A stretch of DNA of 64,000 nt, taken from positions 1 through 64,000 of the IMG/VR virus record IMGVR_UViG_3300023053_000008; one strand, 5' to 3'. This DNA is from a virus (Duplodnaviria > Caudoviricetes). Below the pieces are notes generated by a model that saw only the letters and a program-made list of their open reading frames with translations, had not been told where the DNA came from and did not search any database. The first letter of the stretch is position 1. Every line of letters begins with the position of its first letter. Below are positions 22,721-63,902 of the stretch, one piece after another. Position numbers and translations under genes: made by a program.

Positions 22721-24931
22721 ATGGCTAAAGGTGAAAATATAATAACTAGAACAGCTAAATCAATAATGAGTCTAGATAAAAAGGTTAACAAAGAACTTTA
22801 CGGTACGGATGAAGTAAACGTAAATAATAAAGAATTAGATGAAATTGAATCCGTTATAAGTGACATAAATACAGACCATAAGAAACATACAGGTAAAAAC
22901 CGTATGGAATTCTTAGCTCAAGTAGCTTATAATAAGAATAGTAATAAAAATACTGGAGAGAAATTTGATAGTAAAAAGCAAGTAGAATCCATTGAAGAGA
23001 TGCTAGGAAAAGGCTCATTAAGTCAATTCTTAGAACTTGAAAAAGATAGAATGGTTCGATATGGTGATTACTACATTATAGATGCTTACATACCAGAGGT
23101 TTCTAAATGTTTAGATGTCTATAGAGATTCAATTCTATCACCAGATGATTTTACTAAAGAAGCATTAAACTTTCTTTATGATAGTAAAACACAAAATGAT
23201 AAAGCTAAATCTGTTGTAGAAAGTAATCTTGACAAGTTAAATGTTAAGTATAAAGTTTCTGAAAAAGCTAAAGATACTGTTAGAACTAGTTTACTTCTTG
23301 GTGATTATTTTGTAGCAGTATTTAAGATACAAGATGAATTAAATAAGATGATTATCAGTGAAGGAAATAAAGATGACCTATTCCTTGAAAGCGGTGAAGA
23401 AGAATTCATTCTTACTGAATCTCACATTGACATTGATGAAGATTTAGAAAAATTTGTTGCATTAATGGAAGGTAAGGATAATCAAGATAAAGCTGATAAA
23501 CTTAAAAAAGAAACTAAATCTTCTGTAGTTAAAGCAATTAATGATAATATTAAATTCTTCAAAGATCCTTCAGATTTATTATCAGATGCTAAAAAGTCTG
23601 CTAAGAAAACTAAAGGTGAAATTAAGATGACAGGTTCTATTGTTAAGAATCTTAATCCTAAGAATGTTATTAAATTAGAACTCGATGGAGTTAACTTTGG
23701 TTATATTTACATTGAAGAGAATAATATGCAGAACGCTAACAGAGATGTAGCTAGTCTTGTTAATAGTAAAGATTACTTTAATTCAAGCTACAACACTAAT
23801 GGAAATAGCAAAGGATTCAGTAATAAATATGAACTAATCTCTAATATGTTTATCAAAGGTATTTCTAAGAAGATTGATAAGAAATTCATTGAAGATAATA
23901 AAGAGTTTAAAGACTATATTTATACACTTGTAAAGAATGATTACATCATGGAGAAAGGTATTTCAATTACTTACCTTGAACCAAATACAGTTCATCACTT
24001 AAAGATTGATAGTGCTGATACTTATGGTGTATCTAAGCTTTCAAAATCCTTATTCTTTGCAAAGATTTACCTTGCAGTATTAATTACTACTATTATGCAA
24101 AAAATCTCACGAGGAAGAGATAAACGTGCGGTATATGTAGAAACTGGTTTAGATGCAGATATCGAAGGAGCAATCCAACAGGTTGTTAAAGATATTAAAT
24201 CTAAAGAAATTACTGCTGATAGTTTAGGTAATCTTTCTACTGTACTTCAAAAGATGGGTAATTTTGAGGATTACTTTATTCCAATGATTAATGGTGAAAA
24301 ACCATTAGACATTGATACAGTGCCAGGGATGGATGTAGAAGTTGATAATGACTTTATGCAAAACTTATTAAAGTCTATTGTTAGTGGTACAAATACTCCT
24401 TTCAACTATATTGATGTTTCTGCGGATGTAGACTTTGCTAGATCATTAGCAATGCAAAATAATACATTTGTGCGTTCAGTAATAAGTCATCAGAAAGAAG
24501 TAAGTGATTTCTATACAAGTTTATTCAAAGCTTTATATGAGAATGAATATCCTGATGAAACAGTAGATAGTACAACTACTTCTAATGATAAGAAAGAAGC
24601 TAAAACAATTAGTGTAGATACTGATAAAATTAAAGTAGTATTACAAGCACCTGTATATCTTAACATTTCTACATTAAACGATCAAATCAGTAATGCTTCT
24701 ACTACAGTTGATTATGTAGTAAGTAACTACTATTCAGATAGTGATGATGAGGCTAAAAAGAATGAATTTAAACGTCAGGTAACAAGGGATTTATTACCAC
24801 ATATGAATTGGGATAAATACGATGCTATATATGACACTGTTACTAAAAATGAAAATCGTGAAGCTATTCAGAAACAATTGACTCCTAATGCTGAAGGAGA
24901 AGATAGTTCAGATGGTGAAATGAGCTTCTAA
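22721..24931 (+). CDS. Portal protein (T4 gp20-like)
   Basis: PEVSKCLD, RGRDKRAVYVETG (gp20 RAPERRVFYIDVG-like), EDYFIP. Confidence 0.8.
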   Translation: MAKGENIITRTAKSIMSLDKKVNKELYGTDEVNVNNKELDEIESVISDINTDHKKHTGKNRMEFLAQVAYNKNSNKNTGEKFDSKKQVESIEEMLGKGSLSQFLELEKDRMVRYGDYYIIDAYIPEVSKCLDVYRDSILSPDDFTKEALNFLYDSKTQNDKAKSVVESNLDKLNVKYKVSEKAKDTVRTSLLLGDYFVAVFKIQDELNKMIISEGNKDDLFLESGEEEFILTESHIDIDEDLEKFVALMEGKDNQDKADKLKKETKSSVVKAINDNIKFFKDPSDLLSDAKKSAKKTKGEIKMTGSIVKNLNPKNVIKLELDGVNFGYIYIEENNMQNANRDVASLVNSKDYFNSSYNTNGNSKGFSNKYELISNMFIKGISKKIDKKFIEDNKEFKDYIYTLVKNDYIMEKGISITYLEPNTVHHLKIDSADTYGVSKLSKSLFFAKIYLAVLITTIMQKISRGRDKRAVYVETGLDADIEGAIQQVVKDIKSKEITADSLGNLSTVLQKMGNFEDYFIPMINGEKPLDIDTVPGMDVEVDNDFMQNLLKSIVSGTNTPFNYIDVSADVDFARSLAMQNNTFVRSVISHQKEVSDFYTSLFKALYENEYPDETVDSTTTSNDKKEAKTISVDTDKIKVVLQAPVYLNISTLNDQISNASTTVDYVVSNYYSDSDDEAKKNEFKRQVTRDLLPHMNWDKYDAIYDTVTKNENREAIQKQLTPNAEGEDSSDGEMSF

Positions 24932-37445: not shown

Positions 37446-38264
37446 ATGGAAAAATTAGATGGTTTTATTATCACTGAATCAGCATATTCAGCTAAACCTA
37501 AAATTGTTTCAGATAAAGCAGATGTAACAGTAGTAGAAACTATTCTTCAAGAAGCAGAAGCGGATAACCGCAATAAACGTCGTTATGATCGAGGTGGATT
37601 ATTTGGAGCATTAAAAACTCCACAAATCCAAGAGAAATTAAAAAGAAAGACTTTCTATGGAGAAGCAGGACATCCATTAGCTTCTGATGACCATGATGCT
37701 GACCTTAGACGTCAAACTTATATTGATCAAACACGTATTTCTCATATTATTACAGACCTTAAATTTGAAGGTAATTTAGTTAAAGGTATGGTAGAAAGTG
37801 CTAACACTGCTTGCGGTAAAGACTTCCAAGGTCTTATTCGTCAAGGTTCAGAAGTATCTTTCTCTATGCGTGGTATTGGTGGAGCGGCAAAACGTCGTGG
37901 AGACATTACTTTAATTGAAGGACCGCTTATGATCATCTGTTATGACTGGGTAGTATTCCCCTCTCATGCTAATGCTTATATGGAGAAAATCATCCAAGAA
38001 AGTGCTCAAGTAAATGAGAAAATTTTAACAGAAGGTAAAATTACCCCTGCTAATATGAATGAGTTATTCTCTTATATTGCTGAATCTAGTAAGAACGTTC
38101 AAGAGCTTGCAGAAGCGGCTGGATTTGAAATTAAAAAAGACGGTTCTAATTTATTTGTAGCTAAAGACAAAATGTTAAGTATTCGTGAAGGTGGAGACAT
38201 CCTTAAAGTTAAATTAGAAGACTTCGTATCTACTGAATTAGACGAGTATATGAGACTCTTCTAA
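37446..38264 (+). CDS. Prohead protease (T4 gp21-like)
   Basis: NRNKRRY, YGEAGHP, FSMRGIG, YDWVVFPSH. Confidence 0.9.
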   Translation: MEKLDGFIITESAYSAKPKIVSDKADVTVVETILQEAEADNRNKRRYDRGGLFGALKTPQIQEKLKRKTFYGEAGHPLASDDHDADLRRQTYIDQTRISHIITDLKFEGNLVKGMVESANTACGKDFQGLIRQGSEVSFSMRGIGGAAKRRGDITLIEGPLMIICYDWVVFPSHANAYMEKIIQESAQVNEKILTEGKITPANMNELFSYIAESSKNVQELAEAAGFEIKKDGSNLFVAKDKMLSIREGGDILKVKLEDFVSTELDEYMRLF

Positions 38265-61108: not shown

Positions 61109-61834
61109 TTAATTTTTGTTGTATTTACTCTTTTTTATGAAATCTTTAATAAGTTGTGGATTCCATCTTAAATATTCAAGTAAACTATAGATATTTTTAA
61201 AATCTCTACTTCCTTTACGAATGGAATCAATCTTTCTATAAAGTTTCATAGTGTTTTGATCCACATTTCTATTGAATTCAAAACCTAAGGTTTTATTAGC
61301 AAATTGATAATCTGCTATATAATCAACCATAATTTTTTTAAGAACTCTAGTATAATCATTGCTTTCCTTATACTTCTTTATATATCTTTTAATAATTGCA
61401 GGATTAAAGAAATATTTAGCTAAGCAACGAACTATACCAATTCTAGCATAACGAATATCTGGAATACCTAATAATAAGGTAACAGTTTCATATATACTAT
61501 TCTCATAAATATTTTTCTTAGCAATCTTTGCAATACCCCTTCTAGGATTACGTTCTGTACTGTACACCGAATAAATATTAACAGTATGAATGAAATTATC
61601 CAGAGTAATATCTAAATCATTTTTGAAGAAGTTATAAATAAATTCCATAGATGATGCAACCCTAGGTCTGTCTGAATTATGTTGCAACGTTACCCCTATA
61701 CTAATATTTTTATTAGAACGACTTAGTCCCTCAAGTAATTGCGTGTCAAAATAAACATTAACACACATCTTACCAACATTATAATTTTCTACATTAAAGT
61801 CATCATAAAACATTACTAACACCCCATATATCAT
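61109..61834 (-). CDS. Hypothetical basic protein
   Basis: Translationally coupled to the upstream gene. Confidence 0.7.
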   Translation of the reverse strand: MIYGVLVMFYDDFNVENYNVGKMCVNVYFDTQLLEGLSRSNKNISIGVTLQHNSDRPRVASSMEFIYNFFKNDLDITLDNFIHTVNIYSVYSTERNPRRGIAKIAKKNIYENSIYETVTLLLGIPDIRYARIGIVRCLAKYFFNPAIIKRYIKKYKESNDYTRVLKKIMVDYIADYQFANKTLGFEFNRNVDQNTMKLYRKIDSIRKGSRDFKNIYSLLEYLRWNPQLIKDFIKKSKYNKN

Positions 61835-62346
61835 TATCTTATTTCTTTATATTTTGATCTTTCTATTTTTACTTTGCTATCAAATCTGAATTCTTTATAT
61901 ATCAGAGAAGCATCTCCTAATTCATTAGTTCGAATAGTTCTTAAGTGAGTATCGCCTACTATAACAACTATTTTCCCTTTCCCTAAATACTCTTTAATCT
62001 TCTCAACCATGTGCTTTTCTCTTAGAAGAAACTTATTCTTTAATGAATAATGTTGGGGAACATCTTCTAAGTCGATTCCTATAAATGGTATATCTAGTTT
62101 GTAAGCTAATTCATACACATCTTTATTTATACTTGGATCACATTGATGTCCTCCAATTCTGCAGTGACTTAACCTTTTTCTAGCTTCCTGCTTATTGTCT
62201 ATTACATCTTCATACAATAATTCATGAAGAACATAGTCAGGTTTTAGTCTTTTTATCTCTCTTTCAATAGTCTCTACAGAATCTCTTACATGATGATTTT
62301 CACCAAAAATAAAGCATGTTTTGACAGACATTTTAGAACTCATCAC
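61834..62346 (-). CDS. TraB/Tiki/ChaN/EreA-superfamily protein
   Basis: IFGENH, VLHEL, IGID, REKHM, VIVGDTHL. Confidence 0.6.
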   Translation of the reverse strand: MMSSKMSVKTCFIFGENHHVRDSVETIEREIKRLKPDYVLHELLYEDVIDNKQEARKRLSHCRIGGHQCDPSINKDVYELAYKLDIPFIGIDLEDVPQHYSLKNKFLLREKHMVEKIKEYLGKGKIVVIVGDTHLRTIRTNELGDASLIYKEFRFDSKVKIERSKYKEIR

Positions 62347-62353
62347 CTTTAAT

Positions 62354-63865
62354 TTATTTTTGTAATTGTCTTAATAATTCTTCTTCATCAATTGGTTGGT
62401 CTAATAAGTCACTATCAATTCCTGCCCCAATAAGTAAAGCATAGATAGTATTTAATACTTGGTTTTCACTGATATCTTTTGGAATATCTTTTAAGTAAGT
62501 ATAACCATACATTGAGATTTGCTTATACATTTCAGTCTTCTTCAATGAACTATCGGCACGAGCACCAAAGAATTCTTGTAAAGCATAATCTGCTTCAATA
62601 ACAGATAAAGCATAGTTCTCTGCATCGGTAACACGAGCAATTTTATCATCACCTGTTACTAGGTTAGTCTTAAGGTTACGTTTATTAATATCTAACGAAT
62701 AAGTATTCTTCTTAGATAAAATCTGCTGTAAACGTCTTAAGTGAATATAACCAATTGGTACTTCATACATAGTTCTTAATGGATCATCCTTCTGACCGTC
62801 ATGACTAAAGTATACATACTCATTTAAAGGAACTTTTAAGAAGTCTAATAATTCTTTGATATCTTTTAATGAAGGTTCATTTTTATTTGGAAGTATCTCT
62901 AAGTAGAAATGATCATCCTCACTATATAAGAACTTCTTCATATATTTATCAAATTTCTCATCAGACATAGACTTAAAGAATCTTTTATATTTATCTACGT
63001 TAATACCAGACTTATCAGCAATAGCTATTGATTTAAGAATCTTATCCTCCATTTTCTTTCTTTTAGCAGGTGTCATCTTAGTAGCTTCACTAAGTAATTC
63101 AATTCCTTCTTTAAGCATCCCTCTTTTATCAGCTTTAACCTTATCAGATACTTTACCTGAAGAGATTTGAGTAAGGTCTGGATGATTTAAGAAATCATTA
63201 GGTCTTACTAAACCATGATTCTTATCAAATAATACAAGTCCTGCATTATTCAATACAAAAGCAATAAATTGAGAGCAGAAGAATTCATATCTTCTATTTA
63301 AAGGGATATTAAAAGCATTCAGGATCAAAGAAATCTTGCTAAATTTGAATTTAGTTTTTTCTTTTTCAAATTTCTTTAATTCTTTCGTAACTTTATTGAA
63401 CTCTCCTTCAGTAACCTTTAGTTCTAATTGAACATAATCAGCATCGTTTTGTTTGTAGAATCCTGAATCCATTTTTTCAATAATGAAACCTGATTCTTCA
63501 TCATCTACATTTCTTCCAAAACCATATACATGATTAAATGAAGGATCTAATGCTAATGAAGCATGGTTGAAATCAGAACGTATTACATTCTTGATAACTT
63601 GACCCATTACTGTCTTTGTATTAGTAAGTATAATATGAAGAGACTTAGTCAGGTTCTTACGATTTCCTTTTAATTTTATTGGTCTTACCATGAACTCTGT
63701 ATTGTATATAAATTCATTTAATACAGAAAACTCCTCATTCTCATTAATAATTTCTTCATCTCTTTCATCAGAAGGGAACATGTATCCTTCAGAACATTCT
63801 GGACAAATTAATGAAAGATGGTCGATACCTTCAGCGTGGTTACAAATGTTGCAAATAGTTTTCAT
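62354..63865 (-). CDS. Fusion: Zn ribbon + permuted papain-like NlpC/P60 domain + RNA polymerase beta extreme C-terminal fragment
   Basis: CNIC/CPEC; NHASLAL and FFCSQFIA; then VPIGYIHLRRLQQ, ARVTDAENYAL, YALQEFFGARADS, VLNTIYALLIGAGID matching the beta C-terminus. Confidence 0.75.
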   Translation of the reverse strand: MKTICNICNHAEGIDHLSLICPECSEGYMFPSDERDEEIINENEEFSVLNEFIYNTEFMVRPIKLKGNRKNLTKSLHIILTNTKTVMGQVIKNVIRSDFNHASLALDPSFNHVYGFGRNVDDEESGFIIEKMDSGFYKQNDADYVQLELKVTEGEFNKVTKELKKFEKEKTKFKFSKISLILNAFNIPLNRRYEFFCSQFIAFVLNNAGLVLFDKNHGLVRPNDFLNHPDLTQISSGKVSDKVKADKRGMLKEGIELLSEATKMTPAKRKKMEDKILKSIAIADKSGINVDKYKRFFKSMSDEKFDKYMKKFLYSEDDHFYLEILPNKNEPSLKDIKELLDFLKVPLNEYVYFSHDGQKDDPLRTMYEVPIGYIHLRRLQQILSKKNTYSLDINKRNLKTNLVTGDDKIARVTDAENYALSVIEADYALQEFFGARADSSLKKTEMYKQISMYGYTYLKDIPKDISENQVLNTIYALLIGAGIDSDLLDQPIDEEELLRQLQK

Positions 63866-63890: not shown

Positions 63891-63902
63891 TATAAAATTG
63901 TT
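63891..63902 (-). promoter_or_regulatory. Late-type promoter AACA-atttta-TA before the fusion gene
   Basis: Motif match. Confidence 0.55.

Follow-up and report, generated by a model that had tools for sequence, protein, structure and literature searches.

The window analysed here is a stretch of 64,000 nucleotides that opens an IMG/VR virus record of 80.4 kb (IMGVR_UViG_3300023053_000008, judged 31% complete) from an uncultured metagenomic phage. Among cultured phages, its closest relatives are the Bacillus AR9/PBS1-like jumbo phages; jumbo phages of Listeria and Staphylococcus and Yersinia phage phiR1-37 come next. One of its genes (Table 1) encodes a protein of 503 residues in which a predicted papain-fold cysteine hydrolase precedes the C-terminal part of an RNA polymerase (RNAP) beta subunit (beta-C). 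We believe that this gene probably specifies a precursor polyprotein, whose exchangeable hydrolase cassette would be freed from the subunit of the virion RNAP (vRNAP) by the prohead protease. The fusion had been proposed in an earlier note made from the DNA letters without database searches. It is not an assembly artefact, since the identical protein is present in the public collection as five member sequences on three contigs, in a single open frame, and P0013, a homologue of 477 aa that is 45% identical over residues 37-496, repeats the same two-domain layout.

The C half matched the family phrog_3233 ('RNA polymerase beta subunit', E 2.6e-34), and residues ~251-498 shared 61% identity with the C-terminal half of a protein of 516 aa from Bacillus phage Goe21, an orthologue of the AR9 protein. 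In a phmmer search against PDB, residues 335-463 aligned with positions 1194-1321 of E. coli beta, ARVTDAENYALSVIEADYALQEFFGARAD fell on a conserved RpoB block, and 10 of the 11 precursor matches in the significant range were RpoB. A profile of 41 orthologues yielded 13 PDB matches, all of them RpoB (E 0.004-0.009), and with both methods the alignment was confined to bacterial RpoB ~1194-1321. These results bear out the beta C-terminus recognised in the earlier note. According to the depositors' GenBank note, the AR9 orthologue BI022_gp077 is a 'proteolysed protein, contained only RNAP domain is found in virions, virion RNAP subunit; HD family phosphohydrolase', and phiR1-37 g203, which is 36% identical to the C half, is annotated as a phage structural protein. 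On the basis of these two annotations, the C half is predicted to be the beta-C subunit of the virion, and not of the non-virion, polymerase.

For the N half, Pfam was of little help: no family was assigned to the precursor, and Peptidase_C92 (PF05708) remained unmatched even at E 10. An exhaustive phmmer search with residues 1-255 retrieved 1590 representative homologues, most of them stand-alone proteins of 180-200 aa and some of 1000-2000 aa. Peptidase_C92 was matched by seven of 51 family members at E<=0.01 (best 3.3e-5). Because the PF05708 gathering cut-off was not reached, we file the hydrolase only at the level of the NlpC/P60 superfamily, where by sequence comparison it is a divergent sister group rather than a PF05708 member. 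The alignment of the 51 family sequences contained only two invariant columns, H101 (NHASLAL) and C197 (FFCSQFIA), with the His before the Cys; E130 was kept in 50 of the 51, and E130, S198, F200, R118 and P222 were each conserved in at least 90%. In BcPPNE, the triad's third polar residue is Glu64 and the conserved active-site tyrosine is Tyr127 (PMC3142127). The 51-sequence profile matched PDB 3KW0 ('cysteine peptidase', BcPPNE) across both the His and the Cys motifs. An alignment-based AlphaFold model of residues 1-255 had a pLDDT of 84.6 overall, above 90 across residues 65-255 and 51-60 in the leader, while single-sequence AlphaFold of the whole protein was uninformative (pLDDT 34). The model superposed on 3KW0 with Z 14.0 (157 residues aligned, rmsd 3.3), on YiiX (2IF6) with Z 13.4 (144 residues, rmsd 2.8), on the type VI secretion system effector TseH with Z 9.4, and on PLAAT3, PPPDE1 and HRASLS2 with Z 4.5-5.2; the first unrelated fold scored Z <4, and the Foldseek probability for the solved members was 1.00. 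Fold matches in a viral library were to permuted papain-like amidases, and to poxvirus G6R/OPG091. The invariant His and Cys, the 3KW0 profile match and the model thus confirm the permuted papain domain proposed in the earlier note.

The window hydrolase shares with 3KW0, 2IF6 and TseH the fold, the His-before-Cys order and aligned catalytic motifs, but it is only 12-15% identical to them, has Phe at column 173 and is embedded in a phage polyprotein. TseH is a cell-wall hydrolase; to our knowledge, no substrate is known for the other 3KW0/YiiX-type proteins of this comparison. The BcPPNE/YiiX group has been argued to have a hydrophobic, lipid-binding S1 pocket and to act as an amidase on acyl-amino-acid bonds and not as a cell-wall peptidase (PMC3142127). 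By analogy, this suggests that the phage protein would be an amidase or esterase with lipid-like acyl groups as its target, rather than a peptidoglycan peptidase.

We then consider the junction between the two halves. When the RNAP module was used to look for relatives of fused length, 50 proteins with N-terminal extensions of 23-600 aa were retrieved. Extensions of at least 60 aa formed 14 unrelated clusters by all-against-all BLAST; Pfam identified HD, GNAT, NUDIX, Metallophos, AAA_33/AAA_18 kinase-like and DUF6582 domains among the extensions, and a local hidden Markov model found the hydrolase in five of the fused-length orthologues. All 50 carried an [I/V]-L-[N/T/S]-E↓A motif (the arrow marks the putative cut) 5-8 residues ahead of the conserved K-R-K-K of the RNAP module. 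P4 was Ile or Val in 38/50, P3 was Leu in 37/50, P2 was Asn, Thr or Ser in 43/50 and P1' was Ala in 41/50, P1 and P3 having been forced when the motif was extracted; in an independent MAFFT alignment (A2), E260 was an invariant column beside RNAP core residues. The Goe21/AR9 junction reads QLLE↓A. Leaderless subunits (P0219, P0220, P0213, P0206 and P0209) begin at the equivalent of A261, the start of P0219 being MAKMTPAKRKEME as compared with ATKMTPAKRKKME in the window protein, and that of P0220 and P0213 MAITPAKRK... Similarly, the first residues of two stand-alone beta-C proteins, g203 of phiR1-37 and gp231 of Erwinia phage Huxley, align to residues 262-264, and ILTE↓A and ILSE↓A close leaders of only 10 and 27 aa. 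The motif is there whenever anything precedes the RNAP module and missing when nothing does; it therefore appears to behave as a processing signal, and not as a structural part of the polymerase. The plain hydrophobic-x-E triplet occurred inside the precursor 13 times against 12.4 expected, that is at chance, and the alignments place its significance in its conservation at aligned positions and not in its count. The earlier note had proposed a polyprotein cut at this junction, and had pointed to two strings as sites. The strings are there, although their numbering had to be corrected to LLSE260↓A261 at the junction and VLNE51↓F52 upstream. The invariance of E260 over ~50 orthologues, the leaderless starts and the presence of a Peptidase_S77 protease in the phage all support the proposal, and we are fairly confident that cleavage would take place at E260↓A261.

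The protease in question is of the gp21-type (Table 1); its PF03420 score of 40.7 bits lies above the curated cut-off of 27 bits, and an S77 protease is also encoded by AR9, Goe21, Staphylococcus DC4, Listeria LPJP1 and phiR1-37. The prohead proteases of T4 and of phiKZ-like phages cut C-terminal to Glu, at L/I-x-E in T4 and at A/S/G-x-E in phiKZ, 201phi2-1 and SPN3US, and in 201phi2-1 a cut at TFE-275 strips a propeptide of 275 aa from vRNAP beta (PMC5694885).

The region preceding the RNAP module showed a marked turnover. The layout of hydrolase plus RNAP was also found in P0005, P0006, P0013 and P0176, and the N halves of the cultured orthologues were unrelated to that of the window protein: a weak HD match was obtained for Goe21/AR9, a portion of that domain is present in BpSp, and the N half of the Staphylococcus and Listeria phages is made up of ~430 aa of unassigned type. 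When a maximum-likelihood tree was built from 56 RNAP modules that were near-complete (intron-split and truncated rows left out), the hydrolase label needed four changes, at least three of them forced by well-supported branches, and shuffled labels did no worse; on this tree, the cassette is thus predicted to have been gained or lost at least three times. P0202, the sister of the window protein, has only a 27-aa leader (98/93 support), and most of the leaderless forms branch basally to a clade of 41 rows (100/98 support), nearly all members of which have a leader or cargo. The leader of the window protein (residues 1-51) bears a zinc-ribbon-like CxxC...CxxC motif (C5, C8, C21, C24) plus an acidic stretch, a design that recurs in the Staphylococcus DC4 leader, where LVNE↓A and LVTE↓S (residues 42-52) come after CxxC...CxxC. 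Because the leader of P0005 and P0176 (65-100 aa) is homologous to leaders joined directly to RNAP in seven other proteins, the hydrolase of these two proteins is placed between leader and RNAP, with a putative site on each side.

The hydrolase module is found outside such fusions as well. Its nearest relatives are not fused to RNAP: P0004 (60% identity, 232 aa) has a 22-aa leader ending in TILE↓A, and P0003 (56% identity) has another domain, here called domain X, in front, behind which comes an ILKE↓F boundary. That P0004 and P0003 are split versions of the window gene was ruled out, as the genes downstream are not RNAP fragments. A hydrophobic-x-E boundary motif ahead of the cassette is common to P0003, P0004, P0005, P0009, P0010 and P0013. 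Among the 54 multidomain homologues (>=300 aa), 25 carried a hydrophobic-[NTS]-E-[AS] motif in the stretch of 30 residues ahead of the hydrolase, compared with 6% expected (p ~3e-16), with a peak at 1-10 residues upstream. Relatives of the window protein hold up to three modules, as in P0184, which contains hydrolase, Metallophos and RNAP in one protein.

Taking these data together, the mechanism that we propose is as follows. A four-part precursor, consisting of the zinc-ribbon leader (1-51), the hydrolase cassette (52-250), a linker and beta-C (261-503), would be expressed late. The S77 prohead protease would cut it after E260 (LLSE↓A), and probably also after E51, and the former cut would free an RNAP subunit of 243 aa, the same extent as the stand-alone subunits of related phages. 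If the protease acts only inside proheads, as in T4, the whole precursor would enter the prohead together with its hydrolase. The hydrolase would be a passenger and not a part of the polymerase, which seems not to need the extension because leaderless subunits exist. The slot between leader and RNAP would represent an insertion hotspot for HD, GNAT, NUDIX, Metallophos, P-loop kinase, an ADP-ribosyltransferase (ART)-like module and the hydrolase, and the existence of an enzyme-rich, fast-changing slot in which catalytic residues are preserved suggests that selection acts on the activity of the passengers themselves.

With regard to the fate of the passenger, we tentatively entertain that the hydrolase stays in the head and is injected as an early effector. 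This idea, which the earlier note had raised, is kept alive by the architecture, that is, by cut sites flanking cassettes on either side of RNAP and by stand-alone hydrolases with short cleavable leaders. It is also possible, if doubtful, that the hydrolase is cleared, as the HD domain of AR9 appears to be. Loose hydrophobic-x-E-[ASGDN] sites number seven in the HD part of Goe21 and one in the hydrolase cassette, and it may be speculated that degradation of HD and survival of the hydrolase would reconcile the AR9 note with injection. A broader proposal, rather unlikely as it stands, would make beta-C and its leader a general loading hub: interchangeable cassettes, fused on either side, would be carried into the prohead, released by the prohead protease at L-[N/T/S]-E↓A and injected along with the DNA as host-takeover or counter-defence effectors of the first minute. 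Such a hub would amount to the capsid-targeting-sequence (CTS)/Alt system of T4 in modular, polyprotein form, and would be shared by the giant Metallophos-GNAT-hydrolase polyproteins described below.

Several observations weigh against this mechanism. The orthologues are related to each other, so that counts across them are not independent events, and the window site, LLSE↓A, has Leu at P4 and not the commoner Ile or Val. At the N-boundary of the cassette, a conserved E-x-x-Y-N-T segment could belong to the fold and not to a cut site. In the 80-ORF proteome (open reading frames from 31% of the genome), the strict site motif occurred twice against 1.2 expected and was not enriched; both matches, however, were in head proteins, at N-terminal boundaries. 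Column 173, where Tyr is present in 41 of the 51 family sequences, is occupied by Phe in the window protein and its three nearest relatives (P0003, P0004 and P0013). Since this family Tyr, possibly the oxyanion Tyr of NlpC/P60, is replaced, the predicted hydrolase activity may be altered. Lastly, the AR9 note, by which the RNAP domain alone is present in virions, argues against retention or injection of the passenger, at least in the case of HD.

Some of these observations favor the explanation that we consider the most serious alternative, even if we would not expect it to prevail: that the 260 N-terminal residues are a disposable pro-domain serving assembly only, for instance by targeting the capsid or keeping vRNAP inactive, and are then cut and cleared, leaving the hydrolase without a role in the next host. 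This would agree with the AR9 note and with the replacement of the conserved Tyr, and also with the fact that removal and clearance of long propeptides is usual in phiKZ-like heads, including the 275 aa on 201phi2-1 vRNAP beta (PMC5694885), and that a vRNAP made late must stay inactive (PMC5312081). However, the catalytic His, Cys and Glu are strictly kept, and the many bona fide enzyme families in the slot are hard to square with a purely steric role. Moreover, leaderless subunits indicate that RNAP can do without a pro-domain, P0004 and P0009 carry the cassette alone behind a short cleavable leader, and the cassette is nearly devoid of the internal consensus sites through which it would be degraded, in contrast to the several loose ones of the Goe21 HD part.

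An improbable explanation is that the fusion is left uncut, the hydrolase remaining joined to the RNAP subunit in the virion and working with the polymerase. There are precedents, as SPN3US vRNAP beta keeps a long N-terminal region unprocessed (PMC5694885) and reviews count the AR9 HD domain as part of the vRNAP (PMC7598289, PMC7824862), but the annotation of the AR9 orthologue as proteolysed and the invariant Glu-Ala junction motif, missing from stand-alone subunits, do not fit with it. Even less probable is that the papain-fold domain is a leader protease that cuts the junction itself, in cis or trans. It has the appropriate fold with the Cys/His pair intact, and cut-site-like motifs adjoin the hydrolase domains in giant multidomain proteins; those motifs are N-terminal and not C-terminal to the hydrolase domains, however, and 45 of the 50 orthologues share the junction motif without having the hydrolase domain. 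The module is found in no deposited phage genome, AR9 included, and yet the AR9 protein is processed; the S77 protease is common to all relatives, and its T4 counterpart cuts after Glu in L/I-x-E. In addition, the hydrophobic, lipid-binding S1 pocket of the YiiX type is ill-suited to a Glu at P1 (PMC3142127). Finally, that the two halves are made separately, from an internal start or through an assembly or frame artefact, is hardly credible: M264 falls opposite the initiator Met of phiR1-37 g203 in the alignment, but M264 is not conserved and no Shine-Dalgarno sequence precedes it, and one open frame was found on the three contigs and the same fusion in diverged homologues.

The precursor polyprotein that we favor resembles several known systems. 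The AR9, PBS1 and vB_BpuM-BpSp phages carry a fusion of an HD domain to beta-C at this exact position (PMC7598289, PMC7824862), and a 2020 review of jumbo-phage RNA polymerases called the AR9 fusion unique and its role unknown. The gene is orthologous to that of the window, and the layout (N-terminal enzyme, linker, beta-C), the junction motif and the late/virion class are the same. In contrast, the AR9 enzyme is an HD phosphohydrolase whereas the window protein has a papain-fold hydrolase and a zinc-ribbon leader, and the AR9 gene, unlike that of the window, is interrupted by introns. The remark in the earlier note that this fusion had not been described is thus only partly right: an enzyme fused to beta-C has been published for AR9, PBS1 and BpSp, and the AR9 GenBank note mentions its proteolysis, but we found no mention in the literature of a papain-fold or other non-HD domain at the N-terminus of beta-C, and tblastn with the hydrolase module gave no match in 50,697 deposited phage genomes. 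What is new is the replacement of HD by a predicted cysteine hydrolase and the filling of one putatively cleavable slot by many enzymes.

In phiKZ-like heads (201phi2-1; SPN3US, with the gp245 protease and A-x-E sites), a gp21-related prohead protease takes off a long N-terminal region from a vRNAP subunit by cutting after Glu (PMC5694885), and a similar cleavage is predicted for the window protein. The subunit is beta-N there and beta-C here, P3 is Ala, Ser or Gly there and Leu here as in T4, and the phiKZ-like propeptides, unlike the window cassette, are not recognisable enzymes and are not known as swapped cassettes. The T4 CTS proteins (IPI-III, Alt) have a short leader ending in L/I-x-E↓ that is cut by gp21, their cargo being packed and injected (PMC5694885, PMC5512222). 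The short-leader forms in the family of the window protein (10-37 aa) resemble them, but in this family the cargo is fused in series with the RNAP subunit, on either side, and capsid targeting is putative. Polyvalent proteins of phages and conjugative elements (Iyer et al. 2017), including the N4 virion RNAP with its metallopeptidase, also string unrelated conflict-type enzymes, among them GNAT, kinase and peptidase domains, in one polypeptide that is predicted to be packaged and to be delivered together with DNA (PMC5512222). For these, processing by their own metallopeptidase domains has been predicted, whereas the window linkers fit a prohead protease; they contain two or more effector domains, as compared with the one enzyme cassette and the RNAP subunit of the window protein, and the study that describes them makes no mention of NlpC, papain-like or YiiX (PMC5512222).

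The features of the precursor gene and of the related head genes in the window are listed in Table 1. Within the cassette, the folded core comprises residues ~70-245. The late promoter noted earlier was found again as a match to the AR9 consensus, AACA-N6-TA/G (PMC5312081); it predicts transcription to start at the A at 63891, with the ATG 26 nt downstream. The motif ended 8-80 nt upstream of 20 of the 80 ORFs, against 5.7+-2.1 for random placement (500 trials, maximum 13) and four ORFs in the antisense control, and this enrichment corroborates the promoter.

Table 1. Location of the precursor gene, its predicted parts and expression signals, and of two head genes, in the 64,000-nucleotide window.
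Feature	Position	Strand	Details
Precursor coding sequence of the virion RNAP beta C-terminal subunit	62354..63865	minus	503 aa, ATG start, TAA stop
Leader, residues 1-51	63713..63865	minus	From sequence; ends IINEN...VLNE51↓F52, candidate first cleavage site
YiiX/BcPPNE-like permuted papain-fold (NlpC/P60 superfamily) cysteine hydrolase cassette (predicted), residues 52-250	63116..63712	minus	
H101 codon	63563-63565	minus	
E130 codon	63476-63478	minus	
C197 codon	63275-63277	minus	
Linker LKEGIELLSE, residues 251-260	63086..63115	minus	Predicted prohead-protease site LLSE260↓A261
Possible second linker site, LKE253↓G	within 63086..63115	minus	
Mature virion RNAP beta C-terminal subunit (predicted), residues 261-503	62357..63085	minus	243 aa
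Match to AR9-type late promoter consensus AACA-N6-TA	63891..63902	minus	AACAATTTTATA
Shine-Dalgarno-like sequence ahead of the start codon	63873..63881	minus	AAAGGATGG; read from sequence
gp21-type head maturation protease (Peptidase_S77/S80)	37446..38264	+	PF03420 E 2.3e-10; phrog_3014 E 2.3e-27
736-aa virion structural protein	22721-24931	+	phrog_3004 E 1.5e-62, family match from residue 250

The two head proteins of Table 1 carry sites of their own. The protease has FIITE12↓S near its N-terminus, which is likely to be an autoprocessing site, and in the phrog_3004 protein EEFILTE234↓S adjoins the start of the conserved part, which suggests a head protein with a propeptide or cargo of ~234 aa. 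In AR9 (NC_031039.1), the S77 match lies in two pieces (88778-89053 and 89429-89578) ~375 nt apart, possibly owing to another intron in an intron-rich genome. The mature N-terminus 'Asp56' given for sp24 in the record of phiR1-37 g199 (L011:4240-5019) was unusable for calibrating the protease specificity, because residue 56 of the translated coding sequence is Glu; the nearest Asp residues are 43 and 60, and the numbering or the start codon of the record is off. Downstream of the precursor gene, an ORF of 170 aa (61834-62346, minus strand) begins 8 nt past the stop codon, and no terminator-like site was found between the precursor gene and the two downstream ORFs. This ORF matches phrog_14325 (unknown function) and has weak, sub-threshold Pfam matches to TraB_PrgY_gumN and erythromycin esterase (GENHH motif); it may encode a small Tiki/ChaN/EreA-fold enzyme of the same late unit.

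Other modules were observed among the relatives. The orthologue of phage vB_SauM-UFV_DC4 (L009:1196-3229, 677 aa) opens with a zinc-ribbon leader, continues with a region of ~380 aa to which no fold is assigned, and ends with ILNE↓A followed by the RNAP module, and orthologues of this type are labelled hypothetical in most Staphylococcus jumbo phage records. Domain X is a recurrent cassette of ~140 aa (P0003 residues 1-140, L007:5001-5420) with the motifs YHLSN and PRVCFSNSIDGC, which is also present in P0010; it is N-terminal to RNAP in P0167 and P0174, and C-terminal in P0188 and P0182, where ILNE↓E and LLNE↓D linkers lead into it. Its identification as an ART was not retained, the only indication being an Atlas score (0.95, near Arr-type ADP-ribosyltransferase clusters), while Pfam gave nothing and the PDB profile no ART; were it one, it would be a close parallel to the injected Alt protein of T4. 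P0180, P0181, P0189 and P0176 have a C-terminal, DUF6582-like tail after RNAP (motifs YIPLTE and NARYANFTLEGLE), reached via a K-x-E-S or L-N-E linker, and the RNAP subunit can therefore be internal in a polyprotein. The giants P0012 (L014:4491-9899), P0011, P0038 and P0074, of 1500-2000 aa, are composed of N-terminal Metallophos, GNAT and two hydrolase domains, to which some add a Gln-deamidase-like papain domain, with F-x-D-x-[LI]-[NT]-E↓[AS] linkers between domains. It is possible that they represent cargo polyproteins processed by the same protease class; phage signals in the genomic context of P0012 were weak.

These results shift the question from the role of HD for the polymerase to the reason for which exchangeable enzymes are attached, in this clade, to a capsid-bound subunit of the polymerase. 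In the cultured AR9, Goe21 and Staphylococcus jumbo phages, the predicted cleavage site, the mature N-terminus and the presence of the passenger in virions can be checked. If the passengers are injected, phage effectors that act early could be drawn from them as from a new and rich source, and the leader plus linker would lend itself naturally as a design to load the heads of jumbo phages with foreign proteins.

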